From Candidatus Altiarchaeota archaeon (GTDB taxonomy: Archaea > Altiarchaeota > Altiarchaeia > IMC4 > SCGC-AAA252-I15), in assembly GCA_043813075.1 (NCBI GenBank), contig JBDRLL010000008.1:1-34969 (forward strand): 34,969 nucleotides of DNA. Reading direction: 5' to 3'. A program made the translations under genes and the position numbers. The notes beneath the pieces were generated by a model that did no database searches, was not told where the DNA came from, and was given only the letters and a program-made list of their open reading frames with translations. Every line of letters begins with the position of its first letter. Position 1 is the first letter of the stretch. Shown piece after piece: positions 12,168 through 32,941 of this stretch.

Positions 12168-12669
12168 TCACTTTATCCAGGAACTCTTCCAAGCTTCCGG
12201 CATCCCCGTTATTCCAGCCGCGTGCCATCTCATCATGGGTTCTGAACTCGTTTGCGTACGTAACGAAGTCGTTGGTTATCGAGGCAAGGCCTGCCCTACC
12301 AATCCCCTTAACATTCCATTCTCTCCCGCATATGGTATTCCTCCTCACTGAAATGTCGCGGCCATTCATGGTGAACGGGTAGAGTCTGCATATGGACGGC
12401 TTGAACCCGTGGATCACGCACTTACCCTCTTCATGGAACACGCAGTAGCCTTCATCGTTCTTCCTTAGGAACAAGTAGTAGTACTCTCTCCCAGACCTTA
12501 TCTCTGTGAAAAGGGATTCCGCCTCATTGACCGAGACCTTCCTCACGAACTCTCTCGGATGCAATCCAGTCCCGCCCGCTATCCTAGCAGTATCTGTTAT
12601 GCTCAAAGGCACGTCGTACATGCAGCATTCATTCACGCACTTCATGCACGGGTTATACTCCCCCACCAT
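12100..12669 (-). CDS. YkgJ-family cysteine-cluster (Fe-S/Zn) protein
   Basis: CMKCVNECC, CVF, CVIHGFKPSICRLYPF motifs. Confidence 0.85.
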   Translation of the reverse strand: MVGEYNPCMKCVNECCMYDVPLSITDTARIAGGTGLHPREFVRKVSVNEAESLFTEIRSGREYYYLFLRKNDEGYCVFHEEGKCVIHGFKPSICRLYPFTMNGRDISVRRNTICGREWNVKGIGRAGLASITNDFVTYANEFRTHDEMARGWNNGDAGSLEEFLDKVIMEYAAERSLYASSCSSDSGTQ

Positions 12670-12708
12670 ATAGTATATTTAGGAGTATATCTAAGATATC
12701 TGTTGGAA

Positions 12709-13620
12709 TTGAAAGCAACACACGCTCTAATGATTCTGGCCGTCTTGCTGCTGGCTTCAATAGCTTTTCTGCTGTTCTATCAGAACTTCATGGCCGGCGG
12801 GCGGGTGGAATATGCAGCATCCACCTCAACGACATTGGCTGAGGTGCGGGAAGCTGCTGCTGCTGCAACAACACTCCCCTTGGTGATACGTGACATGGGC
12901 CTTGTTGCGGCTGAGGGTGACGTGGTGACCGTCCACTACGTCATATGGGACGAGGATGGTGTTATGTACGACACATCCTATCAGGAGTTGGCGAACAAGA
13001 CCGTAGCGTACATGCTTGGGGACGACACCGGCTATGGTCCTGTCACATTCGAAGTCGGCTCCGGAACCGCGATCGAGGGCCTTGAGACTGGCGTCATCGG
13101 CATGTCTGTCGGTGACAGCAGGACACTCACAATAGAGCCTCTGAAGGCTTACGGCCTGCATGTGGATGAATACGTTTTCCTGCTGTCCAGGACCGAGAGG
13201 ATTCCCAGATATCAGAGCATAGCCCGCGATATATTCGAGAGGGATATCGGCTCAAAACCCGCATTGGGGGGTGTATACACGCTTTCGAAAAACATGTCCT
13301 CAGTGGACTGGCCCATAACAGTCGTTAACTTGTCAGGTGATAGCGTTTACATAGAATACGGGCTGCCTTCGGTCACATCATTTGAAACCAACTTCGGTCC
13401 TGCAGTCATCGAGGAGACTGGTGACGAGTTCCACGTGATAGTCAGCCCCTCCACCGGCAGGGTAGTGACCAAGTACGGCATCGCCCGCATAACCGACGTT
13501 AATGAGGAGAACTTCACGCTGGATTACAACAACGAGCTTGCCAACAAGACGATAGTGGTCAAAGTCGATCTACTGGACATCATGAGGGCGTCCGGCACTG
13601 GACTATCTACTCCTCAATGA
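12709..13620 (+). CDS. Membrane-anchored FKBP-type peptidyl-prolyl isomerase (SlyD-like, long insert)
   Basis: GDVVTVHY, DTS, FEVGSG, IEGLETGVIGM, IEPLKAYG and LDYNNELANKT motifs; N-terminal TM plus Thr-rich linker. Start uncertain (TTG 12703/12709 or ATG 12730); the 12559 start would overlap the divergent gene. Confidence 0.82.
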   Translation: MKATHALMILAVLLLASIAFLLFYQNFMAGGRVEYAASTSTTLAEVREAAAAATTLPLVIRDMGLVAAEGDVVTVHYVIWDEDGVMYDTSYQELANKTVAYMLGDDTGYGPVTFEVGSGTAIEGLETGVIGMSVGDSRTLTIEPLKAYGLHVDEYVFLLSRTERIPRYQSIARDIFERDIGSKPALGGVYTLSKNMSSVDWPITVVNLSGDSVYIEYGLPSVTSFETNFGPAVIEETGDEFHVIVSPSTGRVVTKYGIARITDVNEENFTLDYNNELANKTIVVKVDLLDIMRASGTGLSTPQ

Positions 13621-17629: not shown

Positions 17630-18985
17630 TTAATCCTTCGGCAAGTGTATGGCGGAGTTGATGGCGTCCAAGACCGCTTCAAGTATTATCTCAGGGTATG
17701 TCGGGTGCGCGCGCACGGTTTCTGCGAATTCCTCTGCAGTCATCCTCCTATCCACCGCCAGGGCGGCTTCAGCTATCATGTCTGACGCGTTCTCGCCGAC
17801 AAGATGAACCCCTATGATGCGGTGGTTACTGTCAATCAATACTTTCGCGAATCCCTGGCGTGCATCCTCGCACCTGGCTTTACCGGAAGCGGCGTAGGGG
17901 AACATGCCTTCACCATGCTCTCCCGCCTCATGTGACGTGACACCCACTCTCGCCATCTCCGGTATGCTGAACACACACCATGGTATTGCATCATAAGTCA
18001 TCTCACTGTCGATGCCCATCATGTTCTCGGCAGCCACCAACCCCTCATTGGATGCGACGTGGGCGAGCTGCAGTCCTCCCGCAACATCTCCTATGGCGTA
18101 TATGCCAGTTATGTTGGTCCTCATACGGGAGTCAACCTTGATTCCCCTGTTATCGTATTCTATACCCAACGCGTCAAGCTCTTGCCTATTTATTGACGGT
18201 ATTCTTCCTACTGCCACGAGCACCTTATCTGCATTGACTTCTATGCTCCCGTCAGGAGTCTCTACATACGCCTTCCCTGAGGTCGAGTCTGTCCTGGAGA
18301 CCTTGGAGTTAACGTGTATCTTCGCGTTCTTGCTTAGGTTCTTCATGACTTCCCCTGAAATTTCAGGGTCTTCCATGGGGAGGAGCCGTTCTTCCATCTC
18401 GACTATCGTTACTTCAGAGCCTAGGCGGCTGAATATGGTTGCATATTCAACACCTACAACTCCCCCGCCTATTATCAAAAGCCTGGCTGGCAGCTCCTCA
18501 AGGCCTAGTATCCCCTCGCTGGATAATATGAATTCCCCGTCATACTCAATGCCTGGTATTCCTGCGGGCACGGATCCGGTGGCTATTATGATGTTGTCAC
18601 ATTCAAGCCGCCTGCCGTCAGCCTCCACGGTTTTCACGTCCAATATCCTTGCATTGCCATATACCACCTCTATGCTGTTGCTTTCAAGCAGCTTCTCTAT
18701 GCCCTTAACAGTAGTGCTCACGACACGGTTCTTCCATTTCAGGAGCGCGTTGAAGTCTATCCCGCTCTTCTCCACGAGAACGCCCCTCTTCGCCAGCGAA
18801 TCCATCCTCCCCATGTCCCTGGCCACAGACCAGAGCGTCTTAGTCGGGATACACCCTCTGTTTGTGCAGACGCCCCCTAGGGCATCTCTTTCCACAAGAA
18901 TGGCCTTACCGCCAAGCTGGGCTGTCCTTATCGCCGCAGTGTAGCCTCCAGGTCCCCCGCCTATTATCACGGCATCGTACTTCAT
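17630..18985 (-). CDS. lpdA: Dihydrolipoamide dehydrogenase (GCS L protein / E3)
   Basis: GGGPGGY, GGVCTNRGCIPTK redox disulfide, GGGVVGVE and HPTYPE. ATG 18985 overlaps the lplA stop (ATGA). Confidence 0.95.
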   Translation of the reverse strand: MKYDAVIIGGGPGGYTAAIRTAQLGGKAILVERDALGGVCTNRGCIPTKTLWSVARDMGRMDSLAKRGVLVEKSGIDFNALLKWKNRVVSTTVKGIEKLLESNSIEVVYGNARILDVKTVEADGRRLECDNIIIATGSVPAGIPGIEYDGEFILSSEGILGLEELPARLLIIGGGVVGVEYATIFSRLGSEVTIVEMEERLLPMEDPEISGEVMKNLSKNAKIHVNSKVSRTDSTSGKAYVETPDGSIEVNADKVLVAVGRIPSINRQELDALGIEYDNRGIKVDSRMRTNITGIYAIGDVAGGLQLAHVASNEGLVAAENMMGIDSEMTYDAIPWCVFSIPEMARVGVTSHEAGEHGEGMFPYAASGKARCEDARQGFAKVLIDSNHRIIGVHLVGENASDMIAEAALAVDRRMTAEEFAETVRAHPTYPEIILEAVLDAINSAIHLPKD

Positions 18986-19734
18986 CTTTTGTTGTTCCAT
19001 TCCTCACTTGAGTACTTAGTCTTCGCTAGTTCACCGGCTAGTTTCATCTCGCTTTCGCTTAGCTTGCCGGGCTCCAGCTCAAGGTTCATCGCCTGGGCGA
19101 ACCCGTTTACAACTGCGTTTGAAGCCTTATGAAACGACACTTCCCTGCCAAGGCAGTCTTTCACGCTTGTGACGCGTTCCTTCACGTTTTCCACGATCTT
19201 GTCCCTCATCTTCTCTGACGGCACCTTCAGCAGTCTGAACATCCTGTTGACGTCCAGCTTCAATAATATCGTCCCATGCTGCAGCATGCAGTGTTTACGC
19301 CTTGTCTGCGCGTTCCCTGAGATCTTCTTTCCTCCTGTGACTATGTCGTTGAGTGGTGCGAACTCGGATTCGATGCCCAGTGAGTCAAGGCCTCTAGTGA
19401 TTCCCCCGCACACTAGCCTGTATGATTCTAGTATGTCTTCTGGAACTTCTTTTTCCGGTATTATGATGCTGTAAGTCAGCTCCTGGTCGTGGAATACCGC
19501 GCCTCCCCCTGTTATCCTGCGCACGACGTCCACTCCCATGTCGCAGCACGCCGCCAAGTCCACTTCCTCCTGGATGCTCTGGAAGTAGCCGATGCTGACT
19601 GCGGGGGGGCTCCAGCCGTATATCCTGAGGGTTGGCTTGCTTGTGCCTTCTGACACGTGTTCCAGCACTGACTCATCCACACCCATGTTCCAGGATGCCT
19701 TCTGGAATCCTGTCTCAAGCAGCCTGCATTCCAT
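18982..19734 (-). CDS. lplA: Lipoate-protein ligase catalytic subunit (LplA-N/LipM-like)
   Basis: NMGVDE, SIGYFQ, RRITGGGAVFHD, ND, KKISGNAQ and QHGT motifs. Confidence 0.92.
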   Translation of the reverse strand: MECRLLETGFQKASWNMGVDESVLEHVSEGTSKPTLRIYGWSPPAVSIGYFQSIQEEVDLAACCDMGVDVVRRITGGGAVFHDQELTYSIIIPEKEVPEDILESYRLVCGGITRGLDSLGIESEFAPLNDIVTGGKKISGNAQTRRKHCMLQHGTILLKLDVNRMFRLLKVPSEKMRDKIVENVKERVTSVKDCLGREVSFHKASNAVVNGFAQAMNLELEPGKLSESEMKLAGELAKTKYSSEEWNNKR

Positions 19735-20002
19735 CCCACGCCTCGCTTATTGCCTTAGTGATTGATTCCGCGTCTATCCCATAGAGTATCGCCCCTGTCT
19801 CGCTTATCGTTTCCCGTATCCTATCCCCCACGTCTTTCTTGCCGCACCCTTTGATTGCATCCTCAATCCTCTCTATCGCCTCCTCAGGGTGCGCGAAGAA
19901 GTCTCCGTTGATTTCAACGTCCTTTATCTTTTCCCCATCAACGTTTATTCTTATCTTAAGGAGTTTACCGCCAGCCACCTTCAGCGTATGCCTGCCTTCC
20001 AT
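19715..20002 (-). CDS. lplB: Lipoate-protein ligase accessory subunit (stand-alone C-terminal domain)
   Basis: KVAGGKLL and INGDFFAHPEE motifs; overlaps the lplA start. Confidence 0.85.
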   Translation of the reverse strand: MEGRHTLKVAGGKLLKIRINVDGEKIKDVEINGDFFAHPEEAIERIEDAIKGCGKKDVGDRIRETISETGAILYGIDAESITKAISEAWDGMQAA

Positions 20003-20096
20003 CGTGAATGTATTTGTCGCAGAAATAAAAAAACACGGATTCTATAAAAAATAAGATAATATTATACAATACAAATATGTCTTATATAATATAACC

Positions 20097-20714
20097 TCAT
20101 TTTTTTATCAGTTTTTTTGCAATGCCTATGAATTCCCCCAGCGATTCAACCCTCCAGTCGCCGTCAACACCAATGCCAACAGTCTTGCACCCTGCATTCC
20201 TGCCGGCTCCAGTGTCAGCGGTAGTATCCCCAACCATCAGCGCATCGCCCACACCGACTCCGAGAATCTCACACGCCTTCAGTATGATATCCGGCCCAGG
20301 CTTGCCCACAGACACGTCATTACCCCCCAGAACCACATCAAAACGATCATGCAACCCCACCTGTTCGAGCGTCAGAAACATCAAGTCCCTAGGCGTATTA
20401 GTTACGATACCCACCTTCAGGCCCCTGGATTTCAGGTATTCGATGACCTCAATGCTCTCCGGGAACAGCTTAACTTCCGATATGTTCTCAGGGAAAAAGC
20501 GGTCGTAGAACCCAAGCAGCTGTTCTGGAGTGTACATGGGGAAAAACCTCTTGATGTCGTACTCGGTGGACTGCCCGAGCACATCCTCGCAGAAATACTC
20601 GTAGCTTATCTCCTCCCTACCCGCATGCTTCAGCACCATGTTGAACGTCTTATGCCATGCAGGCACTGAATCCACTATGGTGCCGTCCATGTCGAACAAA
20701 ACAGCCTTGAACAT
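20097..20714 (-). CDS. HAD-superfamily phosphatase (phosphoglycolate phosphatase-like)
   Basis: FDMDGT, VTN, KPGP and VGDTTAD motifs. Confidence 0.9.
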   Translation of the reverse strand: MFKAVLFDMDGTIVDSVPAWHKTFNMVLKHAGREEISYEYFCEDVLGQSTEYDIKRFFPMYTPEQLLGFYDRFFPENISEVKLFPESIEVIEYLKSRGLKVGIVTNTPRDLMFLTLEQVGLHDRFDVVLGGNDVSVGKPGPDIILKACEILGVGVGDALMVGDTTADTGAGRNAGCKTVGIGVDGDWRVESLGEFIGIAKKLIKK

Positions 20715-20741
20715 CGTTGAAGAAGATAAAGCGAATACACC

Positions 20742-21578
20742 TTAAAATAGGCTTGCCGCGTGATAACTGGTCCTCGCCAGCGGCTCTGAAATTACGTTAT
20801 CAAACCCCCTTAAAGCAGCCTCCTCACCGTATTGCGTGAACACTTCCGGCCTGACGTACTCAACCACCGGAGCCTGCTTGCTTCCAGGTTGCAGGTACTG
20901 TCCGAGGATCAGGAAATCGCATCCAGCACCCCTCAAGTCGTCCATAGTCCTTAACACATCCTCTTCGCTCTCTCCCAGCCCCAGCATTATGGACGACTTC
21001 GTCTTAACCCCGTCGTTGATGTCCTTAACCTCCCGTAGCGTCTGGAGGCTCCTCTCGTAGGAGGCCCTAACGTCCCTCAAATCCTGCAGCCTCTTCACGA
21101 CCTCGATGTTGTGGGCTACGACTTCGGGCCCGGAACCGACGACAGTCGCCAGCTCATCGCCAACATAGTCTGGTATGAGCACCTCAACCCTCGCGCCCAC
21201 ATCCTTTACAGCCTTCACGCATTCCGCGTAGTGTCTCGACCCGCTGTCAGGCAGGTCGTCCCTGTCCACTGAAGTCAGGACTACGTAGGCCAAACCCAGC
21301 TTCCTGACCGCGTCAGCGAGCCTGGCAGGCTCCTCATCGTCCAAAGGCATCCCGTTCTTACCGCTCTTGACAGCGCAGAACCCGCAGTTCCTAGTGCACA
21401 CGTCTCCCAGTATGAGGAACGTAGCGGTCCCGGAACCCCAGCACTCCGCCTTATTAGGGCACAAGGCCTCATCACAGACCGTGTGCAGGCTGTTCTCACT
21501 AAGCACCTGCCTGACCTTTCCGAAGGCACTTCCTCCCGGCACCTTAACTCTCAGCCAGTCAGGCTTCCGAGACACCAT
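20742..21578 (-). CDS. lipA: Lipoyl synthase
   Basis: RKPDWL, CDEALCPNKAEC (CX4CX5C), CTRNCGFC, TSVDRDDL, GQYLQP and C-terminal RTSY; ATG 21578 preferred. Confidence 0.96.
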   Translation of the reverse strand: MVSRKPDWLRVKVPGGSAFGKVRQVLSENSLHTVCDEALCPNKAECWGSGTATFLILGDVCTRNCGFCAVKSGKNGMPLDDEEPARLADAVRKLGLAYVVLTSVDRDDLPDSGSRHYAECVKAVKDVGARVEVLIPDYVGDELATVVGSGPEVVAHNIEVVKRLQDLRDVRASYERSLQTLREVKDINDGVKTKSSIMLGLGESEEDVLRTMDDLRGAGCDFLILGQYLQPGSKQAPVVEYVRPEVFTQYGEEAALRGFDNVISEPLARTSYHAASLF

Positions 21579-21655
21579 AACATAATACTCAGAAGGACAC
21601 GATAATAAAACCAATGTATTAAATGGTCAGGCATGCGACAAATTCTTGACAGGGT

Positions 21656-22549
21656 TTAGTCCTTCCCCTTCAGGTACTTGAATATCTCAGATTCTGAGGA
21701 TGTTATAATCACATTGTCCTCCTTGGGTATTATCTTTCCGTAAGCCTCCATCGTCCTCATGAAACGGTAGAACTCAGGGTCCACGTCATATATCTGCCCG
21801 TATATCTTCCCTGCCTCAGCGTCTGCCCCGCCTTTTATTACCGAGGCGTTATGGTATGCCTCAGACAGTATCACCCGCCTAAGCCTGTCTGTCTCAGCGT
21901 TTATCTTGAGCGCCTCCTCCTCTCCCTCGGAACGGTATTTGTTGGCCATCATCTCCCTCTCAGACATCATCCTCTCAAACACGTGTGCCAGGTTCTGGTA
22001 TGGGAAATTTATGCGGCGGATTTTCACATCCTTTATCTCCATCCCGTAGTCATCCAGCTTGCTTCTTGAGGACTCCACAACCTTCTTGTTTATATCGTCC
22101 CTCTTGATGCTTATGATGTCCTTGAAATCGTATAACCCCAGTTCTCTCCTGATCTCTGAGTATACTATGTCGCTTATCCTGTAGTTAGCCCCCTTCTCGT
22201 TGCCGACAGTCTGTATGTACTTCAAAGGGTCCTTTATCCTCCATATGACGTAGTAGTCTATCACAAGGTTTTTCTTGTCGCTTGACAGCACTTCCGACTC
22301 GGATGACTCGCTTGTGATCAGCCTCGCATCTAACCTCTGGATGTTCTGTATGGGCTCTGGCAGCTTAACATACAATCCCGGATCAGTTATGATCCTTACG
22401 GGCTTCCCGAATTGCGTCACCACAACGTTCTCAGTCTCGTCGACTATGAAGAACACCATGCTTAGCATGAACGCTAGGACTATGGCTGAGAGTACTATCG
22501 CCGACTTGCCCGTCCATTTCCTCTTGTTTTTCGCGTTCATATTTATCAT
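21656..22549 (-). CDS. hflC: HflC-type SPFH protein
   Basis: Single N-terminal TM; VVTQFGKP, DKKNLVID, WRIKDP, RMMSER, RSEGEE and DPEFYRFMRTMEAY motifs; ATGA overlap with the upstream gene. Confidence 0.92.
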   Translation of the reverse strand: MINMNAKNKRKWTGKSAIVLSAIVLAFMLSMVFFIVDETENVVVTQFGKPVRIITDPGLYVKLPEPIQNIQRLDARLITSESSESEVLSSDKKNLVIDYYVIWRIKDPLKYIQTVGNEKGANYRISDIVYSEIRRELGLYDFKDIISIKRDDINKKVVESSRSKLDDYGMEIKDVKIRRINFPYQNLAHVFERMMSEREMMANKYRSEGEEEALKINAETDRLRRVILSEAYHNASVIKGGADAEAGKIYGQIYDVDPEFYRFMRTMEAYGKIIPKEDNVIITSSESEIFKYLKGKD

Positions 22550-24399
22550 AATAGTAGTGGGCCCTTCTCGATCCTGCTCATGAGTTCGTCCTCGGTCAAT
22601 TCCGTGTCTGCGGTGCTCCAGTACTCTTCCTCCTCACTCATATCATATCCATTGGGGTCGTACATGGGGTTCACGGCATCTGGTTCAGCGTCTGTCTTCT
22701 GTTCCTTGTATGCCAGCTGGTTCAGGAGTATCAGCTTCGAGTAGTCTAGGCTGCCTCCTCCGTTGTCTGGCGCGTCTATTATGAACAGCTTTGTCTGTGG
22801 GAGTGTATTCTCAAGGGTCTCTATGTATATCCTTGTTCTGGTTGTGTCCATGTGTTTCTTGTACTCCTCATACACCTTCATGAACCTCTCGACATCCCCC
22901 ATGGCAGTGTTAATCCTCTGCGTCCTGTAGGCTTGGGCGTCCTGCACGATTTTCTCGGCATTGCCTCTGGCTTTAGGCAGCACGTCGTTCTGGTATGCCC
23001 TGGCGTCGTTTATTATCCTGTTCTTGTCTTCCCTGGCGCTTGCCACATCCTTGAATGATGCGGCTACTTCGGACGGCGGGTGGACGTCCTGTAGCTGGAC
23101 CGCTAGTATGTCCAGTCCTGCCCCATAGGCGTCGAGGGTCTCCTGCGCTATGGACTCGACGTCGGATTGTATCATCATCTTCCCTCCAGTCAACGCCTCG
23201 TCTATACTCTTCCTGCCTATGACCTCCCTGGTCGCAGTCTCCACAGCATCCCGTATAACCCTGTGGGGTTCCCTGGTGTTGAAGAGGTATTCCGCGGAAT
23301 CCCTTATCCTGTATTGCACTATCATGTTCACGTCAACAATGTTCTCGTCGCCAGTCACCATCATGGACTCGTCACTCACCTTCGTGTAGCTGTCTGTGGT
23401 GTGTACGCTCTCCCAGAACTCCGGTTCAAAAGAGTCGGAGTACGGTGTCTTCTCCAGCCTGAAGCCTAACTCAAGCCTGTTCACCTGCGTGACCTTGGTC
23501 TTGATTATGGCCTCCACAGGCCAGGGAAGATGGTAGTGCAGTCCTGGCTCCATTATCTCTCCAGTATGCACGCCGAACCTCTTCACCACACCCTCTTCAT
23601 CGGACTCCACAACGAATATGCCTGAAGCCAGGTATACGACTATCAAGGCCACTATCGTGTATTTCCAGAGGTTCTTAAGCCTCTTGTAGTACTTCCTTAT
23701 GTCAACAGCCATCCTGGCATGGCCTACCTGCTCGATGTTGTTCATTTCCGCGGACTCCATGTCCTGGTATAGCCCCTTTAGGAATCTTCTAGCTGACTTT
23801 GACAATATGTCAACGCCCACTTTTGCTATCATTATGGCTATCAGCACTCCAGCTATCTTGTTCAGTCCTATGCCCACAAGGGAGCCGAGGAGCGAGATAA
23901 GAACCGCCCCTGACGAGTACACGTCCATATATGAGTCGTATCCGTCTGCAACAAGGGCGGGTGAATTGGTCTTATTGCCTATGTGTATCTTGTATTTGCT
24001 CATGAAGTATGATGCGCCGAGGCTTATCAGAGTCCCGACTATCGCGAGTGGGAAGTTTGGCACGATGTTGTCGAACAGTAGCTTTGGTTCAAGGGCTCTC
24101 TTGAATACTTCATAGGCCCCGAAGAGTATGAAGAAGGATATTAGTATCGCCGCCAGGTTCTCCACCTGGTGCACTAGCTTGAATTGTTCCTTGGATTCTA
24201 TGCGCCCTATCCGTATGCTCACGTATGCGAGAACTGATGTGAGCGAGTCGACCAGGGAGTGCGCGGCATCCAGGAACAGGAGGCTGGTGTTGGACATGTA
24301 GCCGAACATCGCCTTGTTTATCGCGAGGAAAACGCACACAGCGAACGAAATCAGCGCAGTCTGCTCCTTAACGGTCTGGTTATTGCCTTCAGCTTCCAT
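22546..24399 (-). CDS. hflK: Fusion of CDF (cation efflux) transmembrane domain and HflK-type SPFH protein
   Basis: aa 1-~208: six TMs with DAAHSLVD, ENLAA, SPALVADG, DVYSS (CDF). aa ~245-570: TM, GVVKRFG, PGLHYHLPWP, TGDENIV, LQDVHPP, PKARG, TRTRIYIETLE (HflK). One uninterrupted frame. Confidence 0.9.
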   Translation of the reverse strand: MEAEGNNQTVKEQTALISFAVCVFLAINKAMFGYMSNTSLLFLDAAHSLVDSLTSVLAYVSIRIGRIESKEQFKLVHQVENLAAILISFFILFGAYEVFKRALEPKLLFDNIVPNFPLAIVGTLISLGASYFMSKYKIHIGNKTNSPALVADGYDSYMDVYSSGAVLISLLGSLVGIGLNKIAGVLIAIMIAKVGVDILSKSARRFLKGLYQDMESAEMNNIEQVGHARMAVDIRKYYKRLKNLWKYTIVALIVVYLASGIFVVESDEEGVVKRFGVHTGEIMEPGLHYHLPWPVEAIIKTKVTQVNRLELGFRLEKTPYSDSFEPEFWESVHTTDSYTKVSDESMMVTGDENIVDVNMIVQYRIRDSAEYLFNTREPHRVIRDAVETATREVIGRKSIDEALTGGKMMIQSDVESIAQETLDAYGAGLDILAVQLQDVHPPSEVAASFKDVASAREDKNRIINDARAYQNDVLPKARGNAEKIVQDAQAYRTQRINTAMGDVERFMKVYEEYKKHMDTTRTRIYIETLENTLPQTKLFIIDAPDNGGGSLDYSKLILLNQLAYKEQKTDAEPDAVNPMYDPNGYDMSEEEEYWSTADTELTEDELMSRIEKGPLLL

Positions 24400-24427
24400 G
24401 TTACCCTATCTCTATTTAATGTCCCCC

Positions 24428-24435
24428 TATATAAA
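24428..24435 (-). promoter_or_regulatory. TATA box for the CDF-hflK/hflC operon
   Basis: TTTATATA on the minus strand, ending 28 nt upstream of ATG 24399. Confidence 0.65.
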
Positions 24436-24485
24436 TATAGTGCGCATATGGGTCTTATTCCAATTATGCACATCCAGATAACACT

Positions 24486-24507
24486 TAAATGCCCTTATGG
24501 GCATTTA
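24486..24507. promoter_or_regulatory. Perfect inverted repeat, candidate operator
   Basis: TAAATGCCC-ttat-GGGCATTTA with 9-bp arms; the right arm overlaps the TATA box at 24504-24511. Confidence 0.6.
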
Positions 24508-24511
24508 TATA
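24504..24511 (+). promoter_or_regulatory. TATA box for the DUF134 operon (probably leaderless)
   Basis: TTTATATA ending 22 nt upstream of ATG 24534; no RBS visible. Confidence 0.65.
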
Positions 24512-24533
24512 CTGTTGCCGTCTATTATTTATC

Positions 24534-24953
24534 ATGGTTGACCGTGGACGGCCTAAGTGCATGCGTAATGTCGAGGGAAAACCTGATGTTGACTACTTCA
24601 AGCCTAGGGGCATACCGCTAACGGAACTGGATTCAGTTGAACTGAAGGTCGAGGAGCTTGAGGCTATGCGCCTCGTAGACTTCGAGGGTATGGAGCAGGA
24701 AGATGCTGCCAGACAAATGAAGATTTCACGACGCACCATGTCCAGGGAGCTCAAGTCTGGCCGCAGGAAAATAACGGAAGCACTTCTGACCGGCAAGGCG
24801 ATAGAGATAAAGGGCGGCAGTTTCCTGGCTAAGGGTGAGGCCTTGTTCAAGTGTGCTGCTGACGGCCACCGTTGGAAAGAAAAGTCCACGAATAAGCCAA
24901 AATGCCCTGAATGTGGTGGAAATAAGGTGAAGAGGATTAAGAATGCTGGATGA
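24534..24953 (+). CDS. DUF134 family HTH protein with C-terminal zinc ribbon
   Basis: [43 protein letters not shown]; then C..DGHRW...CPECGG. ATG 24534 preferred over 24489. Confidence 0.92.
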
Positions 24954-25071
24954 TGAGAAAGAGGATGAGCGATCGCCGCCCTACAGGGATGGTTCAGGCG
25001 GCGGTAAGAGGGCTAACCGAGGTAAATACTGCGGTGGTGAGGGAGAGGAAACCGGAAGATACAGAGACTAA
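24943..25071 (+). CDS. 42-aa Gly/Arg-rich mini-protein (not in the ORF track)
   Basis: [42 protein letters not shown]; GAGGA upstream; fills the gap between DUF134 and the next gene. Confidence 0.55.
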
Positions 25072-25083
25072 ACTGAGGTGACT

Positions 25084-25284
25084 ATGATGCCTGGAAGGGA
25101 TGGTGGAGGCCCTGCAATGGGTCCTGGACAAGGTGGGAGAGGAAGAATGCATGGTGGGGGCCCAGGGGGTCCGACAAAGTGTGTATGCCCTAAATGTGGT
25201 TCACTTCAACCGCATGTCAGAGGCACCCCATGCATCCAGACAAAGTGCGCTAAATGCGGTTCTATGATGGTCAGGGGTGATTGA
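25084..25284 (+). CDS. Small Gly-rich, Cys-rich protein (DUF5320-like N-terminus plus zinc-ribbon-like C-terminus)
   Basis: MPGRDGGGP...CVCPKCG...H.RGTPC...CAKCG..M; GAGGTGA RBS at 25075-25081 (start 25084 or 25087). Confidence 0.8.
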
Positions 25285-25592
25285 TACCTAAAATGCATTC
25301 CTATGCTGAGATAGATGCGGCTCGCAGAACCCTTTGTCTGGGAGAGTATGCGACACTTAAGGAAGTTAAGGATGCATTCAGGCGTCTAGTCAAAAAACAC
25401 CATCCCGACAAGGGTGCCGTCGATGATGCTGGGCGGATAAACGATGTGATAAATGCTTATGGCGTTTTGATTGCGTATATCGGGAAATACACGTATTCAT
25501 TCAAGTCAAATGATGTCCTGCGTCAGAACCCTGATGAGTTGATGAAGACGATATATGGGGGTGACTGGATGTGGGGCATATCCGGTAAATAA
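25281..25592 (+). CDS. Small J-domain (DnaJ-like) protein
   Basis: [17 protein letters not shown] with HPD motif; INAYGVL. Confidence 0.85.
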
Positions 25593-25611
25593 TCGTGGAG
25601 GATGATCTAAG

Positions 25612-26040
25612 TTGAATATCGCAGTTGCAACGACAAAAGGAGGGCTAGATGATAGTGTGTCCCCCATCTTCGGTAGATGCATCAAGATAACGCTAGTAGA
25701 ATGCGAGGGTGGTGAGATATCAAATGTTGTGATAACCGATAATCCCGGTTTCATGGAGGCTGGTGGCGCAGGAATCAAGGCAGCGCAATATGTCTCTGGC
25801 TTGAATGCGGAAGCAGTAATCGCGGGTAATTTCGGGCCAAACGCATCAACCGTGCTTTCACAGTCCGGAGTCAATATGCTGCTGTCACAGGGTACAGTTA
25901 AAGACTCTGTTGAGAAATACATTAACGGCGAACTAACCAATGTATCAGGCCCCACGGTTGAAAGCCATCATGGTATGGGGGCGCGTGGGTTCGGAGGTCA
26001 TGGAAGACGCCATGGCAATACTAACATAAGAGGTGATTGA
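25612..26040 (+). CDS. NifB/NifX (FeMo-cofactor-binding fold) family protein
   Basis: IAVAT, SPIFGRC, GGAGIKAAQ and GNFGPNA motifs; Gly/His-rich tail. Confidence 0.9.
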   Translation: MNIAVATTKGGLDDSVSPIFGRCIKITLVECEGGEISNVVITDNPGFMEAGGAGIKAAQYVSGLNAEAVIAGNFGPNASTVLSQSGVNMLLSQGTVKDSVEKYINGELTNVSGPTVESHHGMGARGFGGHGRRHGNTNIRGD

Positions 26041-26440
26041 CTTGCTGATAGCATTTCCAACTGACGGCGACAAGGGATGGGACGAGGAATTAAGCCAGCA
26101 TTTTGGCCGTTCTACAAGGTACACGCTAGTTAATGATGAAGACGATTCCATAACAGTCATAGAGAATACGAGCCAACACATGGGTGGTATGGGAATGCCG
26201 CCTGAAATACTCTCAGAAGCGGGTGTTAATGTCATCATATGCCGTGGCCTTGGCCGCAGGGCCATAGAAATGTTCAGTGAGTTTAACATACAGGTATACT
26301 GTGACGCATCTGGTACTGTTGGGCAGGTATTCAAACAATGGAAGGCTGGAGGACTTTTGCCAGCATCTGAGGATAACTCATGCACTAGACACGATTTCCG
26401 GTCTGAACATCATGGTTCAGGTAATTGCGGAAGGCATTAG
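26033..26440 (+). CDS. NifB/NifX family protein with His/Cys tail
   Basis: SQHFGRS and ICRGLGRRA motifs; tail CTRHDFRSEHHGSGNCGRH. Start may be TTG 26042. Confidence 0.9.
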   Translation: MIDLLIAFPTDGDKGWDEELSQHFGRSTRYTLVNDEDDSITVIENTSQHMGGMGMPPEILSEAGVNVIICRGLGRRAIEMFSEFNIQVYCDASGTVGQVFKQWKAGGLLPASEDNSCTRHDFRSEHHGSGNCGRH

Positions 26441-26441
26441 C

Positions 26442-27275
26442 ATGATTATTTCTATTGCTAGCGGAAAGGGCGGCACAGGCAAGACGACCCTCGCTGTTAA
26501 TCTAGCGCTTTCCATGGGGGATGTGCATCTGGTTGACTGTGACGTTGAGGAGCCTAACTGTCACATATTCCTCAAGCCCGAGACATTCGAGGCAAGGGAT
26601 GTCTGCGTTAAAGTGCCTGACATAAACCATGACTTATGCGATTACTGCGGTAAATGCTCTGAATTCTGCCAGTATAATGCTCTCGCAGTGGCAAATAGGA
26701 CAATGCTTGAATTCCCAGAGCTATGCCATAGTTGCGGTGGATGCAGTATCGTATGCCCTAAAAACGCGATTAGTGAAAGGGAAATGCGGATAGGTGAAGT
26801 AAGGTCATGTAAAATAGGGGGATTAGACTTCTCGTATGGTATACTTGACATAGGTAAGGCCATGGCATCGCCAATAATACGTTCTCTAAAGTCGGCTATT
26901 GACCACAATAGGGACGTTATACTAGACTCACCGCCAGGTACTTCTTGCGCGGTCATAGAGTCTGTTAAGGGCAGTGACTACTGTGTGCTTGTCACCGAAT
27001 CCACACCATTCGGTCTTAATGACATGAAGCTTGCCATTGAGATGCTCGAAAGCATTGGTGTACCCTATGGCGTTGCAATAAATCGTTATGGTCTAGGGGA
27101 TTCAAGTGTCGATGATTACTGCAGTGAACGCGACATACCTGTGTTGGTTAGACTCCCTTATGACCGTAGGATAGCTGAATTGTATTCAAAAGGCGTGCCT
27201 TTTATAAGCGAATTATCAAAATATAGTGTCATATTTAACGGTATGATAGATTCCATTAGAGAGGTCGTTGGATGA
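26442..27275 (+). CDS. MinD/ParA-superfamily P-loop ATPase with inserted 2x[4Fe-4S] ferredoxin
   Basis: SGKGGTGKTT, DCDVEEPN, CDYCGKCSEFC, CHSCGGCSIVCP and DSPPGTSC; ATG 26442 follows the NifX stop. Confidence 0.92.
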   Translation: MIISIASGKGGTGKTTLAVNLALSMGDVHLVDCDVEEPNCHIFLKPETFEARDVCVKVPDINHDLCDYCGKCSEFCQYNALAVANRTMLEFPELCHSCGGCSIVCPKNAISEREMRIGEVRSCKIGGLDFSYGILDIGKAMASPIIRSLKSAIDHNRDVILDSPPGTSCAVIESVKGSDYCVLVTESTPFGLNDMKLAIEMLESIGVPYGVAINRYGLGDSSVDDYCSERDIPVLVRLPYDRRIAELYSKGVPFISELSKYSVIFNGMIDSIREVVG

Positions 27276-28564
27276 AGAATTCACTACTAATAAGCTTAAT
27301 AACCCTACTCGTCATTTTACCCTCCGTTAGTGGGCAGAATGACTCCAACACAACCCATGAGGTCACTGCCTACGTGTTCTGGGCTTACGGGTGCCCTCAT
27401 TGTGCCGCGGAGAAGCCTTTCATGGAGGCATTGGATAATGAGTATCCTTGGCTTACCGTGAAGTACTATGAGATATCCTCTGACTACAAGAACGCTGAGC
27501 TATACTCCAACATGGTGAAGGCGTGCGGCCAGAATCCTCTGGGCGTGCCTGCGACAGTCATCGATGACGAAGTCTTCTTCGGGTATGACGACAACATTCG
27601 CATGGGCGCGAGGATACATGACCGCCTACTCAAGTGCCATCAAGAGGGGTGTATTGACGCTATCCTCCTTGTTAACGGTTCCGACGCGTGTGTGGACGGC
27701 ACTCAGAACGACACTTCAGTTGACATACCCCTAATCGGGAAGGTGGACGCAACCCAGATGTCGCTGCCCCTATTCACTATAGTGATCGGCGGGCTGGACG
27801 GCTTCAACCCATGCGCGTTCTTCGTGCTATTCTTCCTCCTAAGCCTCCTAATCCACGCCAGATCCAGGATACGCATGTTCATGATCGGCGGCATATTCGT
27901 GTTCTTCTCAGGATTCATCTACTTCCTCTTCATGGCCGCCTGGCTGAACTTCTTCCTATTCATCGGCCAGATCAAGGCCATCACGCTAATAGCAGGTATT
28001 ATCGCCCTCATCGTCGCTTTGTTGAACATAAAAGACTTCTTCTGGTTCAAGAAGGGGGTCTCCCTGTCCATACCCGAGTCAGCTAAGCCAAAGCTTTTCA
28101 GTAGGATGAGGGACCTCGTTAAGGCAAGCGAGTTGCCATCAATGGTTTTGGGGACTGCCATACTGGCAATAGCCGCAAACACGTATGAGCTGTTGTGCAC
28201 TGCCGGCTTCCCAATGGTCTACACAAGGGTTCTGACCCTCAACAACCTTTCGACCACCGGATACTACACGTATCTCGCGCTATACAACATCGTCTACGTG
28301 ATGCCCCTTTTCACCATCGTGATGATGTTCACCATAACCCTCGGTTCAAGAAAGCTAAAGGAAGAGGAGGGCAGGATACTTAAGCTGCTGTCGGGCTTCA
28401 TGATGCTTAGCCTGGGTGTGATTCTCGTTGTTAAGCCAGGCCTGCTAAACAATGTTGTTGTTGCTGTTGGGGTGCTGGCTTTTTCAGTGTGTGCTACTGC
28501 AGTAGTTAAGTCTCTTATGCTATCCAGGGGAAAAGATGAAACAGCTGACGGTAATCAGTGGTAA
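27272..28564 (+). CDS. Exported thioredoxin domain fused to a CcdA/DsbD-like TM redox domain
   Basis: Signal peptide, GCPHC, GVPA cis-Pro loop; then about 7 TMs with the DGFNPCAF and ELLCTAG cysteine pair. Confidence 0.8.
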   Translation: MKNSLLISLITLLVILPSVSGQNDSNTTHEVTAYVFWAYGCPHCAAEKPFMEALDNEYPWLTVKYYEISSDYKNAELYSNMVKACGQNPLGVPATVIDDEVFFGYDDNIRMGARIHDRLLKCHQEGCIDAILLVNGSDACVDGTQNDTSVDIPLIGKVDATQMSLPLFTIVIGGLDGFNPCAFFVLFFLLSLLIHARSRIRMFMIGGIFVFFSGFIYFLFMAAWLNFFLFIGQIKAITLIAGIIALIVALLNIKDFFWFKKGVSLSIPESAKPKLFSRMRDLVKASELPSMVLGTAILAIAANTYELLCTAGFPMVYTRVLTLNNLSTTGYYTYLALYNIVYVMPLFTIVMMFTITLGSRKLKEEEGRILKLLSGFMMLSLGVILVVKPGLLNNVVVAVGVLAFSVCATAVVKSLMLSRGKDETADGNQW

Positions 28565-29830: not shown

Positions 29831-31264
29831 TTAATCTCTCCTAATCCACCGTAAATCCGGGTTTCTCGCGGCCTGCGTGTTGTCGAGTCTTTTGACTGGC
29901 GTCGTATGCGGTGCAGTGTTCACCGTCTCCGGGTTGTTCTTGCATTCCTCGCCTATATTCTCCATGACCGTGACGAACTCGTCCAAAGTGGCCTTGCTCT
30001 CCGTCTCCGTCGGCTCTATCATCATTGACTCTTCGACTATGAGCGGGAAGTAGATTGTGGGCGCGTGGACTCCATAGTCCAGCATGCGTTTCGCGATGTC
30101 CAGCGTATGCACCTTGTTTTCATATAGTTGTCTCCTGCCTGACAGCACGAATTCGTGCATGCACGTCCTGTCGAAAGGCAGGTCATACGTTCCCCTAAGC
30201 TTCTTCATAAGGTAATTAGCGTTCAATACCGCATCCTCAGACGACCTCCTTAAGCCGGCACCCCCCAAAGCCTTTATGTACGTGTAGGCCCTCACCAGCA
30301 CCCCGAAGTTGCCGTAGTAAGCCCTCACTCTCCCAATGCTCTTCGGGATGTCGTAGTTAAAGTAGTAGCCTTTCCTGTTCTTTTCCACAGTCGGCTTCGG
30401 CAGATAATCATTAAGCGCATTCTTCACGCCGACTGGCCCGCTTCCTGGGCCGCCGCCGCCGTGGGGTGTTGAGAAAGTCTTGTGCAGGTTCACGTGCACG
30501 ACATCGAAGTTCATGTCGCCTGGTCTCGCCTTCCCGAGTATGGCGTTAAGGTTCGCCCCGTCATAGTAAACCAGCCCCCCGTTCTCGTGCACTATCCTTG
30601 TTATCTCGCATATGTTCCTGTCAAACAATCCCAGCGTGTTGGGGTTGGTGAGCATTAGGCCTGCAGTATCATCGTCCATCAGCTCTTTCAGGGATTCCAC
30701 GTCCACCTCTCCTTCACTGTTGGAGGCGACTTGCACTATCGCATACCCGCACATGGCCGCACTCGCAGGGTTGGTGCCGTGGGCTGAGTCGGGGATGAGC
30801 ATCTTACCCCTTTCCTCTCCCTTATCCTTTAGGTATGCTTTGATGATCATTATGCCAGTCATCTCGCCGTGGGCTCCCGCAGCAGGCTGTAAAGTGAACC
30901 TGTCCATTCCCGTTATCTCGCAGAGGTCTTTCGACAGCTCGTACATGATTTGAAGCGCTCCCTGAGCATCCTCCACTCTTGTGTAAGGGTGTATTCCACT
31001 GAATCCCGGTAGGCTTGCCGTGAAATCATTTATCTTCGGGTTATACTTCATCGTGCAGGAGCCTAGCGGGTAGAATCCAGTGTCCACGCCGTAATTCCTC
31101 TTCGCGAGCGCGGTGTAGTGCCTCACCACGTCCGACTCCGATAGTTCAGGCAGACCAACCTTACCCCTCCTCATGGACTCAGGTATTACAACTGATTCCG
31201 ACACCTGTTCAGGTGGCATCCACCCCACCCTACCCTCCACGCTCTTCTCGAAAAGCAGCTTCAC
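29831..31264 (-). CDS. gcvPB: Glycine dehydrogenase (decarboxylating) subunit 2
   Basis: [46 protein letters not shown] (PLP Lys) and IEPTETE. Confidence 0.97.
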
Positions 31265-32544
31265 ACAGACACCTCCCCCACGAACGCGTCAATCTCCTCC
31301 CTAGAGTCCACTTCAGTGCAGCAGAACAGCCTGCAACCATCCAAGTCAGGATAGAACACGCTCACGTCAAAACCAGCTTCAACACTTTCCGGACACTTCA
31401 ATAGGAACTCATTGTAGAACGGCTGGTCGTACACCCTCTCGAATCCGTCCAACTCACACAGCTTCATGGAAAGGTATGATGCGTTCTTGTGCGAGTTCAA
31501 GGCCACGTGCCTGAAGCCTTCAGGACCAAGCAGGGCGAGATATGATGAAGCCGCTATGGCATTCAATGATTCTGAAGTGCAGATGTTTGATGTCGCCTTC
31601 TCCCGCCTGATGTGCTGTTCCCTAGCCTGCAGCGTCAGCACGAACCCCCGCTCGCCGTCTCGGTCTGTCGTTGCTCCCACAAGCCTGCCAGGCATCTTCC
31701 GGACATACTCCATCCTGGTTGCCATGAAACCGAAGTGCGGCCCACCGAACGACATTGGGTTGCCCAGGCATTGGCCTTCACCGACGACTATGTCTGATCT
31801 GGCTGGCGGCTTTACTATGCCCAGTGACGTGGCTTCTATGACGCATGATATTAGCAGTGATTTCTTGTCGTGTACTATGTCTGTGATGGCGTCAACATCC
31901 TCCAGGCATCCGAAGAAGTTCGGGTTCTGGATTATGACGCACGCGGTATCATCTGTGACATGCTCCTCCAGGTTATCCGCGACCACTCCTCCCTGAGTCT
32001 CGACGGTTTCCAGGCGGATGCCGGCCGTATTCAAGTATGTCTCAAGCACCTGCATGTATTCCGGATGGATGTTCTCAGGCGCTATGACAGTGTTCTTATT
32101 GTTTATCCTGTGTGCCATCAGGCAGGCTTCAGCCAGTGCGGTGGAGCCGTCGTACATGCTGGCGTTCGACACTTCCATGCCAGTGAGCTCGCACATCATC
32201 GTCTGGAACTCATAGAGTGCCTGCAGCACTCCCTGGCTTACCTCCGCCTGGTATGGAGTGTACGCCGTATATATCTCTGGGAGTCCTGTCACATGCCTCA
32301 CTGCTGAGGGCACGAAATGGTTGTATACCCCAGCGCCAGTGAACATGGATTGCGTATTGTTCTTAGAGGCGAGTTTCACAATCCTTTCATGGACTTCCAC
32401 CTCACTGTAACCTCCCTCAACATCAAGGTCCTTCTTCAGCAGGATCTTATCGTTTACATCAGCGTATAACTCGTCCATGCTATCCACCCCAATGTATTCC
32501 AGCATAGACTTGCGTTCGCTGGGGCTGCTTCCAGTGTAATCCAT
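31261..32544 (-). CDS. gcvPA: Glycine dehydrogenase (decarboxylating) subunit 1
   Basis: [27 protein letters not shown] and [19 protein letters not shown]; ATG 32544 preferred. Confidence 0.96.
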
Positions 32545-32554
32545 GTTAGCGTCT

Positions 32555-32941
32555 CTACCTGCTTTCAGCAACGTGTTTAGAGTACCCTTCAGAGTCCATC
32601 AGGTCGTCGAGTTCTCCAGAATCCCTCATCCTTATCTTGAACATCCACCCTTCCTCGTAGGGTGACGAGGTTATGAGCTCAGGCTTGTCTTCAAGCTGGC
32701 TGTTGACTTCCACCACCTCGCCGCTTACCGGCGCATAGATGTCTGAAACGGATTTAACAGACTCTACGACCGCAACGCTCTTCGACTTCTCGACGTTATC
32801 CCCCTTGCCTGGGAGCTCAACGTAGACTATGTCTCCGAGCGCGTTCTGCGCGTAGTCTGTTATCCCAACAACGCACACGTCACCCTCCTTCTTAACCCAT
32901 TCATGCTCTTTAGTATACTTTAATCCTGTAGGCAGATTCAT
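32555..32941 (-). CDS. gcvH: Glycine cleavage system H protein
   Basis: YTKEHEW, GITDYAQ, LGDIVYVELP, VESVKSVSD (lipoyl Lys); GAGGTGA RBS. Confidence 0.97.
   Translation of the reverse strand: MNLPTGLKYTKEHEWVKKEGDVCVVGITDYAQNALGDIVYVELPGKGDNVEKSKSVAVVESVKSVSDIYAPVSGEVVEVNSQLEDKPELITSSPYEEGWMFKIRMRDSGELDDLMDSEGYSKHVAESR

Follow-up and report, generated by a model that had tools for sequence, protein, structure and literature searches.

We analysed a window of 34,969 nucleotides (positions 1-34,969 of the forward strand of contig JBDRLL010000008.1, assembly GCA_043813075.1) from Candidatus Altiarchaeota archaeon. One of its genes joins the membrane domain of a cation diffusion facilitator (CDF) to HflK in a single open reading frame (ORF) and is followed directly by hflC. 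The fusion proves to be a module that is widespread and found mainly in bacteria, coexists with FtsH and is a paralogue of canonical HflK/HflC where both occur; in archaea it is reduced to two genes and found in hosts in which FtsH was not detected. We propose, with a probability of roughly 55%, that the fusion protein is a divalent-metal/proton exporter whose lost dimerisation domain has been replaced by a ring of HflK and HflC, which would cluster the exporter and cover its exit side.

Both halves of the protein belong to known families, and SPFH cages that enclose transporters are known in humans. What we did not find in the literature is the covalent CDF-HflK fusion, with its conserved operon partners and its archaeal hosts that lack a detectable FtsH. 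No paper on a CDF-HflK or CDF-SPFH fusion was found in a search that ran outside subscription journals and supplements, where mention in a domain table is possible, and the papers that name HflK or SPFH together with cation diffusion facilitators were unrelated, as judged by title and abstract. Databases already hold hundreds of these fusions as HflK, under the name "FtsH protease activity modulator HflK". That annotation is corrected here, as it has been applied even where no FtsH gene is found.

Structure of the fusion protein and its transport site

The fusion gene encodes 617 amino acids and occupies 22546..24399 on the minus strand, stop codon included. It is followed on the same strand by hflC (21656..22549, 297 amino acids), to which it is translationally coupled: the TGA stop of the fusion and the ATG start of hflC share an ATGA overlap, read directly from the sequence (...CTATTATGATAAAT...).

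The N-terminal part of the fusion is the membrane domain of a CDF (residues 1-219, 23743..24399, minus strand). Residues 16-205 match the Pfam family Cation_efflux (PF01545; E = 3.5e-29, 102.4 bits, cut-off 26.6), and the NCBIfam model for the CDF superfamily, TIGR01297, scores 108.4 bits (cut-off 82.35), with a match that ends at position 222 of the 285 in the profile. ZT_dimer (PF16916), the cytoplasmic C-terminal domain of CDF proteins, had no match in the fusion at E <= 0.01. The CDF half aligns with YiiP/FieF of Shewanella (phmmer E = 2.6e-6), and a Foldseek comparison of the N-terminal half of the model with YiiP (8f6k_B) gives E = 4.2e-6. An AlphaFold2 (AF2) model of the fusion, computed from an alignment of 68 sequences, has a mean predicted local distance difference test score (pLDDT) of 79.4 and a predicted template modelling score (pTM) of 0.51. 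It places six helices in the CDF half, at residues 2-36, 39-67, 70-103, 116-144, 147-174 and 180-219, with a pLDDT mostly between 75 and 95 across the block.

The remainder of the protein is an HflK. Band_7 is matched at residues 263-468 (Pfam, E = 1.3e-25), and the hflK equivalog TIGR01933 scores 270.1 bits (NCBIfam, cut-off 159.4) over residues 261-543, covering profile positions 1-249 of 261; the same model gave 272.5 bits in a scan of the host genome. Alignment of this half with E. coli HflK (7vhp_E) is strong (phmmer E = 5.2e-52), and HflK chains rank first among Foldseek matches to the whole model (7vhq_E, E = 1e-18). In the AF2 model, confidently placed SPFH strands and helices at 261-440 are followed by helices at 443-515 and 517-532. 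We assign residues 259-545 (22765..23625, minus strand) to a predicted extracytoplasmic HflK body composed of the SPFH domain and coiled-coil helices.

Between the two halves lie a linker and a seventh helix. The predicted cytoplasmic linker (residues 220-233, 23701..23742, minus strand) is marked by an AF2 pLDDT below 50 at residues 218-232. It lies in a loop, residues 201-247 by hydropathy, with 11 lysines and arginines against 5 aspartates and glutamates, and both its length and its sequence differ between clades in the alignment. The seventh transmembrane helix (residues 234-258, 23626..23700, minus strand) corresponds to the HflK anchor; AF2 places it at 234-258, hydropathy delimits a segment at 248-266, and in the alignment the helix falls on the transmembrane region (residues 85-129) of E. 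coli HflK. CDF proteins usually have both termini in the cytoplasm. Because of this usual topology, the linker should be cytoplasmic, and the seventh helix should carry the SPFH domain to the outer face as it does in HflK. The predicted arrangement of six helices, positive linker, seventh helix and outer-face SPFH domain is thus self-consistent, and the order expected of HflK, an N-in anchor followed by an extracytoplasmic SPFH domain, is recovered by prediction, with six additional helices preceding the anchor.

The protein ends in an acidic tail that is predicted to be disordered (residues 546-617, 22549..22764, minus strand; AF2 pLDDT about 40-56), with disorder in the model from about residue 541 onwards. 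Seven fusions of the archaeal clade, compared in alignment A1, have a long tail with a similar short hydrophobic motif at its end, whereas bacterial fusions have no such tail. The adjacent HflC matches Band_7 (Pfam, E = 3.9e-31) and the hflC equivalog TIGR01932 (NCBIfam, 208.3 bits, cut-off 134.4). By hydropathy, it has a single N-terminal hydrophobic helix at residues 18-36, preceded by five lysines and arginines.

A sequence-only reading of this locus had described one 617-residue frame combining a six-helix CDF, a linker and a full HflK, coupled to hflC by an ATGA overlap. The ORF, its Pfam and NCBIfam matches and those of HflC all bear this out, and the view that CDF termini suit the N-in topology of HflK agrees with the positive linker, the seventh helix and the outside SPFH domain predicted from hydropathy and AF2. 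Two of its details were adjusted: the linker, put at about 40 residues, is present with a length of about 30-47 residues depending on the method, and the CDF domain is a membrane domain from which the cytoplasmic ZT_dimer domain is absent.

The residues that bind metal in CDF transporters have counterparts in the fusion. H47 and D51 in helix 2 and D155 and D159 in helix 5 occupy the positions of the YiiP/FieF transport site in the phmmer alignment. The likeness to YiiP/FieF (PDB 5vrf, 8f6e) thus covers the six-helix membrane domain and metal-ligating residues at all four helix 2 and helix 5 positions. The two differ, however, in the residues themselves, the fusion having His/Asp and Asp/Asp where YiiP has Asp/Asp and His/Asp in the same alignment columns, and in what follows the membrane domain: the fusion lacks ZT_dimer, and the C-terminus of its CDF domain runs on into HflK.

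H47 is invariant in all 68 fusions of a broader alignment (A3). The four-residue patterns in A3 are HDHD (36 proteins), HGHH (24), HDDD (4), HDED (3) and HDHN (1), with HDDD and HDED representing the archaeal clade. A further 126 fusion proteins, made up of 55 database representatives and proteins from the loci described below, gave 117 HDHD, 6 HGHH, one HDED, one HAHH and one partial pattern. Since the site residues are conserved, the CDF half appears to bind metal and probably transports it. Two of the four residues are altered in the HGHH clade, which is bacterial and consists of proteins of about 511 amino acids (P0043, P0047, P0077, P0108 and relatives). This clade also lacks an insert of about 30 residues that is present in the SPFH domain of the other clades in A3.

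Among named CDF equivalogs, the best-scoring model for the CDF half is NF033616 (CDF_MamB; 98.6 bits over residues 9-233, cut-off 350). The His/Asp/Asp/Asp site, taken with this MamB-like nearest named relative, loosely favours Fe2+ or Mn2+ over Zn2+ as the metal, which should be read as a guess. The likeness to MamB and MamM, the CDF iron transporters of magnetosomes, lies in this best named match. The fusion nevertheless falls far below the cut-off, so that it is not a MamB orthologue, and it has no magnetosome context. MamB itself has a cytoplasmic C-terminal domain. A complex prediction for two copies of CDF residues 1-216, made from A3, gave a score of 0.00 (mark 0.42) and weighs neither way on self-association.

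Distribution of the fusion and its bacterial form

Relatives of the fusion protein were sought in a collection of 5.8 billion proteins. Among 8000 scored candidates, 364 reached E <= 0.001; we inspected the best 120, most of which carry both Pfam domains. Six full-length relatives are 53-59% identical over 90-99% of the query, and two of these are named Candidatus Altiarchaeota archaeon; another relative of 490 amino acids is 53% identical over 80% of the query. More distant groups comprise proteins of 560-576 amino acids at about 35% identity, some labelled only "bacterium", and proteins of 511-512 amino acids, some named Deltaproteobacteria bacterium.

A junction-spanning profile, built from the N-terminal 310 residues and compared with one genome per species, yielded 529 relatives confirmed by tblastn, and the best 80 loci were kept. 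Nearly all of these 80 are bacterial. They span many phyla and include cultured isolates: Desulfosporosinus, Flavonifractor porci, Aliagarivorans, Vibrio sp., Chelativorans, Tianweitania, Allosediminivita and Bariatricus. CDF and HflK share one uninterrupted frame in 73 of the 80 loci, as scored by script; homologues are therefore not always split into two genes. Four of the remaining loci had no CDF match at the threshold used, and three had a CDF match without the HflK part, two of which stop at the edge of the locus while the third, from a Heimdallarchaeota genome, is a plain CDF. Of the 73 fused loci, 71 have an hflC homologue after the fusion; the remaining two are cut off by the end of the locus. 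The three clusters listed in a protein atlas (111, 50 and 70 members) are 100% two-domain and 94-100% bacterial. The Cation_efflux plus Band_7 architecture, noticed here in an archaeon, thus proves to be widespread and mainly bacterial.

Within the host phylum, a full-length fusion was found in 4 of 61 genomes, all of one family; the other genomes have ordinary CDFs of about 290-310 amino acids. The three other archaeal carriers show the same single frame with hflC next to it. The junction helix and the transport-site residues are conserved across the fusions in the alignment. Split forms or close stand-alone CDFs were sought with query residues 1-240 among 698 candidates of 30-338 amino acids, and none was found at E <= 0.001 by this search, which needs shared five-residue words; shorter CDFs at 28-39% identity are present in an exhaustive search of representatives. 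Some short CDFs (207-334 amino acids) are nested within fusion clades and may be fragments from contig ends.

That exhaustive search, made with the CDF half alone, returned 3355 representatives at E <= 0.001. An HflK-like half is present in 55 of the 148 new representatives listed, among them all of the seven best (38-41% identity, 548-598 amino acids). The nearest relatives of the CDF half without an SPFH part are proteins of about 380-440 amino acids that combine a CDF with a NifX-like domain. All 12 of the NifX-type CDFs tested match Cation_efflux and Nitro_FeMo-Co, 10 of them above the Pfam cut-off, and 11 of the 12 match ZT_dimer. In contrast to the fusion, these proteins keep the cytoplasmic CDF domain, add a further cytoplasmic domain and have no SPFH part.

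Trees were built for each half. For the HflK half, 102 rows were analysed by a quick IQ-TREE run (LG+G4, with SH-aLRT support only); the input included 69 three-gene loci thinned to 37 by dropping near-duplicates of at least 75% identity, and nine HflC rows served as the outgroup. The seven fusions of the archaeal clade group together (support 99), separate from the bacterial fusions and sister to 12 plain HflKs (support 96), which had been chosen as best matches to the window protein, a choice that biases the sister placement. The tree of the CDF half contained 133 rows, drawn from the first 110 of the 148 new representatives and 17 hand-chosen loci. All fusions fall on one side of a branch with support 100 that separates the NifX-type CDFs, which form a 51-row clade (support 100) beside the archaeal fusions. 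Neither tree shows or excludes a single origin of the fusion. In some additional fusion representatives (P0133, P0139, P0144, P0145, P0151, P0154 and others), the SPFH half shares only 20-27% identity with the HflK half of the window protein, so that CDF domains may have been joined to SPFH parts of more than one subtype. A further relative of the CDF half, P0128 (437 amino acids), has a C-terminal Rhodanese domain in the place of HflK.

The bacterial module is larger than the archaeal pair. In 69 of the 76 loci with a CDF match, the fusion and HflC are followed by another SPFH gene, of about 300-420 amino acids, which makes three in a row. Two examples of the third gene were scored with the hflK model: one is above the cut-off (L045, 221.7 bits) and the other just below it (L040, 149.7 bits). 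A peptidyl-prolyl isomerase (PPIase) of 640-785 amino acids with two parvulin domains by Pfam is present in 44 loci. In 41 of these the PPIase gene shares the strand of the SPFH genes and directly adjoins them, 30 times upstream (within 1.1 kb) and 11 times downstream (within 400 bases); two further ORFs lie elsewhere. Several of eight PPIase N-termini inspected are lipoprotein-like, and 13 of 43 long ORFs have a hydrophobic segment beginning in the first 80 residues. An example of the complete module is L045:5513-11515, with others among loci L008-L086. The four archaeal loci consist of two genes only, with neither a third SPFH gene nor an adjacent PPIase.

FtsH is encoded in all five of the named bacterial carrier genomes checked. 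Two of the five, Aliagarivorans and Chelativorans, possess a separate canonical HflK/HflC pair elsewhere, while two clostridial genomes and a Hydrogenedentes genome have copies of the module and no other HflK/HflC. Given the canonical pair alongside it in two bacteria, the module is a paralogous system with a role of its own. No PADLOC model matched the fusion or HflC, as would have indicated a defence system.

The archaeal host and a proposed function

The host genome is a draft of 1.80 Mb in 41 contigs and is 89.3% complete. Its archaeal origin is confirmed by the presence of Ribosomal_L21e, a family that was positive only in the four archaeal genomes among the controls. Peptidase_M41, the family of FtsH, had no match in this 89.3% complete genome and was detected in ten bacterial control genomes; neither did it match in the three other archaeal carriers of the fusion, which are 84, 85 and 70% complete. 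Across the 61 genomes of the phylum, Peptidase_M41 matches occur in three, none of them a fusion carrier. One of the three is strong (G051:C211:1086-1652, 244.7 bits, in a 633-residue frame); for this and the other two (G013:C56 and G044:C45), a real FtsH and contamination are both possible. Archaeal Lon is present in the host at 860.5 bits (cut-off 516.6). The expectation from the sequence-only reading, that of an archaeon with Lon and without FtsH, therefore agrees with the genome. The fusion is the sole Cation_efflux match in the host, no other host gene reached the HflK cut-off in the genome scan, and the only parvulin-type PPIase is a match of 111 amino acids. Since no FtsH was detected, HflK and HflC would not act as an FtsH modulator here, and the gene content of this host supports a module that is independent of FtsH.

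The same reading had supposed that an archaeon repurposed the HflK/HflC cage. This was not upheld: the architecture is overwhelmingly bacterial, the bacteria checked have FtsH, and only 4 of the 61 genomes of the phylum carry the fusion. The HflK/C subfamily was absent from archaeal genomes according to a 2009 survey (PMC2636767), and this, together with the patchy distribution in the phylum, fits acquisition of the archaeal fusion from bacteria.

The best-characterised counterpart is the HflK/HflC-FtsH complex of E. coli. There, HflK and HflC both possess a single N-terminal helix, with large SPFH and coiled-coil regions in the periplasm, and FtsH hexamers are surrounded by a cage built from 12 HflK-HflC heterodimers (PMC12005517). 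Native HflK/C complexes have an opening on one side, and HflK/C can be purified in assemblies that lack FtsH (PMC12048511). The module studied here resembles this complex (PDB 7vhp, 7wi3, 9cz1/9cz2) in its equivalog scores, in the alignment and fold of HflK, in the order of N-in anchor, SPFH domain and coiled coil, and in the order of hflK and hflC. It differs in that a six-helix transporter domain stands where HflK has its N-terminal cytoplasmic tail, in the acidic C-terminal tail added by the archaeal-clade fusions, in the third HflK-like subunit added by bacterial modules, and in that no FtsH gene was found in the archaeal hosts.

We infer a ring, its stoichiometry and the position of the CDF domain relative to it, as well as transport, the metal transported and an effect of the ring on transport. 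The CDF domain would be a divalent-metal/proton antiporter that lacks the cytoplasmic dimerisation and regulatory domain and is joined by a short linker to the HflK anchor. The fusion and HflC would alternate in a large ring, as HflK and HflC do in E. coli, with the SPFH domains and a coiled-coil dome on the outer face. With one CDF membrane domain per HflK subunit at the rim, up to twelve exporters could be held in one membrane patch; the ring may stand in for the lost cytoplasmic dimerisation domain, and the side from which metal exits would lie under or beside the dome. As the module occurs in this archaeon without FtsH and contains the only CDF detected, its most likely role there would be as a general exporter of a divalent metal.

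Several considerations weigh against this proposal. Ring formation by this pair rests on the analogy with E. coli. Transport competence is not assured, because the cytoplasmic domain that helps to hold known CDF dimers together is missing, and in the HGHH clade the CDF domain may serve something other than classical transport, where the altered site may be of a non-classical kind or reflect lost transport. The choice of metal is a guess from residue chemistry and from a MamB match that is below its cut-off (98.6 against 350 bits). With the host genome 89% complete, an FtsH gene or a second CDF may have been missed. Finally, since all five bacterial carriers checked have FtsH, an FtsH-linked role for the whole family is possible.

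In a rival explanation, the CDF domain would no longer carry metal across the membrane but be a metal-binding sensor or anchor that switches the ring, with the ring controlling a protease (FtsH or, in the archaeon, membrane Lon or another) or the stability of membrane proteins. The loss of the CDF regulatory domain, the altered HGHH site of one clade, the FtsH genes of the bacterial carriers and the archaeal Lon of the host are all compatible with such a quality-control scaffold, as is the finding that E. coli HflK/C modulates FtsH and affects the stability of several proteins (PMC12005517). Nearly all members outside the HGHH clade, however, retain the four-residue site. Conservation of this kind is not expected of a mere membrane anchor, and the complete, confidently modelled six-helix fold of YiiP type exceeds what a sensor or anchor needs. 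If the fusion, as the only CDF found in the host, did not export metal, the cell would be without this class of exporter, and the four archaeal loci have no protease gene linked to the module. We therefore regard the scaffold explanation as unlikely.

The position of the PPIase genes raises a different possibility. The adjoining double-parvulin protein in 41 bacterial loci, with its lipoprotein-like or membrane-anchor start in several cases, should act outside the cytoplasm, on the predicted side of the SPFH dome, and CDF proteins export toward that same extracytoplasmic side. The tethered CDFs might then discharge metal, independently of FtsH, into a chamber under the dome where exported proteins acquire their fold and their metal, assisted in bacteria by the PPIase and the third HflK-like subunit, or where metal is kept off the cell surface; the archaeal two-gene form would be the minimal version. 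If true, the archaeal form would be the cleanest system for showing an HflK/C-type cage with a client other than a protease. The archaeal loci, however, have no adjoining PPIase, the host has only its 111-residue parvulin match, and in about 30 of the 73 fused loci the flanks examined contain no PPIase. No client protein was identified, and we know of no SPFH cage established to be ion-tight; the opening on one side of native E. coli HflK/C (PMC12048511) also speaks against a chamber. We consider this explanation distinctly improbable, somewhat more so than the scaffold.

That a truncated CDF gene and hflK were joined by a sequencing or assembly error, or that the frame is a decaying pseudogene, can be set aside despite the draft state of the contig (89% complete genome): the intact frame recurs in three further archaeal genomes at 53-59% identity, in the 73 fused loci from many bacterial phyla and in the three two-domain atlas clusters, its junction helix and site residues are conserved, and the word-based search gave no close stand-alone CDF below 339 amino acids. 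This recurrence in archaeal and bacterial genomes rules out a chance frame for practical purposes.

For the proposal of a ring-borne exporter, the closest precedent is in human cells. PMC13724742 reports UT-B and AQP1 to be enclosed by stomatin cups and proposes solute carrier (SLC) transporters as enclosed cargo; the resemblance lies in an SPFH oligomer with transport proteins and in the delimited membrane patch and secondary chamber proposed there. A structure described by its title as aquaporin 1 bound to stomatin (PDB 9zd2) is among the Foldseek matches to our model. Human stomatin also modulates SLC transporters. Stomatin, however, is a homo-oligomer on the cytoplasmic face that is anchored by a hairpin and has varied, non-covalent clients, whereas the fusion has a predicted outer-face SPFH domain in a predicted hetero-oligomeric ring of HflK/HflC type, and its client is covalently attached at one copy per HflK subunit.

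How SPFH cages such as HflK/C, prohibitin and stomatin affect the proteins that they enclose is an open question on which the fusion bears. To our knowledge, FtsH is the only established client of bacterial HflK/C. The covalent fusion identifies a client, the CDF exporter, and sets how many copies of it each HflK subunit carries. It thereby offers a directly testable system both for the effect of an SPFH ring on a transporter and for the question of whether another scaffold allows a CDF to function without its cytoplasmic domain.

Genomic neighbourhood

The fusion is preceded by an intergenic region at 24400..24488 (minus strand, read directly from the sequence). An A+T-rich stretch, TTTATATA, lies about 30-36 bases before the start codon and is a possible archaeal TATA box.

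Directly upstream, a gene cluster spans 24489-27275 of the window on the opposite strand. It begins with a DUF134 gene that has a Cys-rich C-terminal extension (24489-24953), and includes two small ORFs, a NifX-like Nitro_FeMo-Co gene confirmed by Pfam (25612-26040), a second, overlapping ORF that appears NifX-like from its translation (26033-26440) and, also from its translation, a putative P-loop ATPase with ferredoxin-like Cys motifs (26277-27275). A DUF134 gene adjoins the fusion in two of the three other archaeal loci, G041, where it is directly upstream on the same strand, and G040. Stand-alone NifX-like genes thus lie beside the fusion in the window, while NifX-like domains are fused to the nearest non-SPFH relatives of its CDF half. 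Because of these NifX-like neighbours and NifX-fused CDF relatives, together with MamB as the best named model, there are hints of an iron-related setting for the module.

In the wider window, the fusion sits in a neighbourhood of lipoate and glycine-cleavage genes (17630-21614 and 29831-32571). The subunits of the glycine cleavage P-protein were confirmed by Pfam; dihydrolipoamide dehydrogenase, lipoate-protein ligase and lipoyl synthase are putative assignments from reading of the translations. In another archaeal locus, G038, lipA adjoins hflC. An FKBP-type PPIase protein of 353 amino acids is encoded at 12559-13620, about 9 kb from the module; it is neither adjacent nor of the parvulin type. 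Three ORFs had no Pfam match at E <= 1e-4, at 4994-6856 (620 amino acids), 6872-8215 (447 amino acids) and 27272-28564 (430 amino acids). The last of these encodes a membrane protein of several helices that has a Cys-x-x-Cys region near its N-terminus, and a homologue with 63% identity lies beside the fusion in G038.

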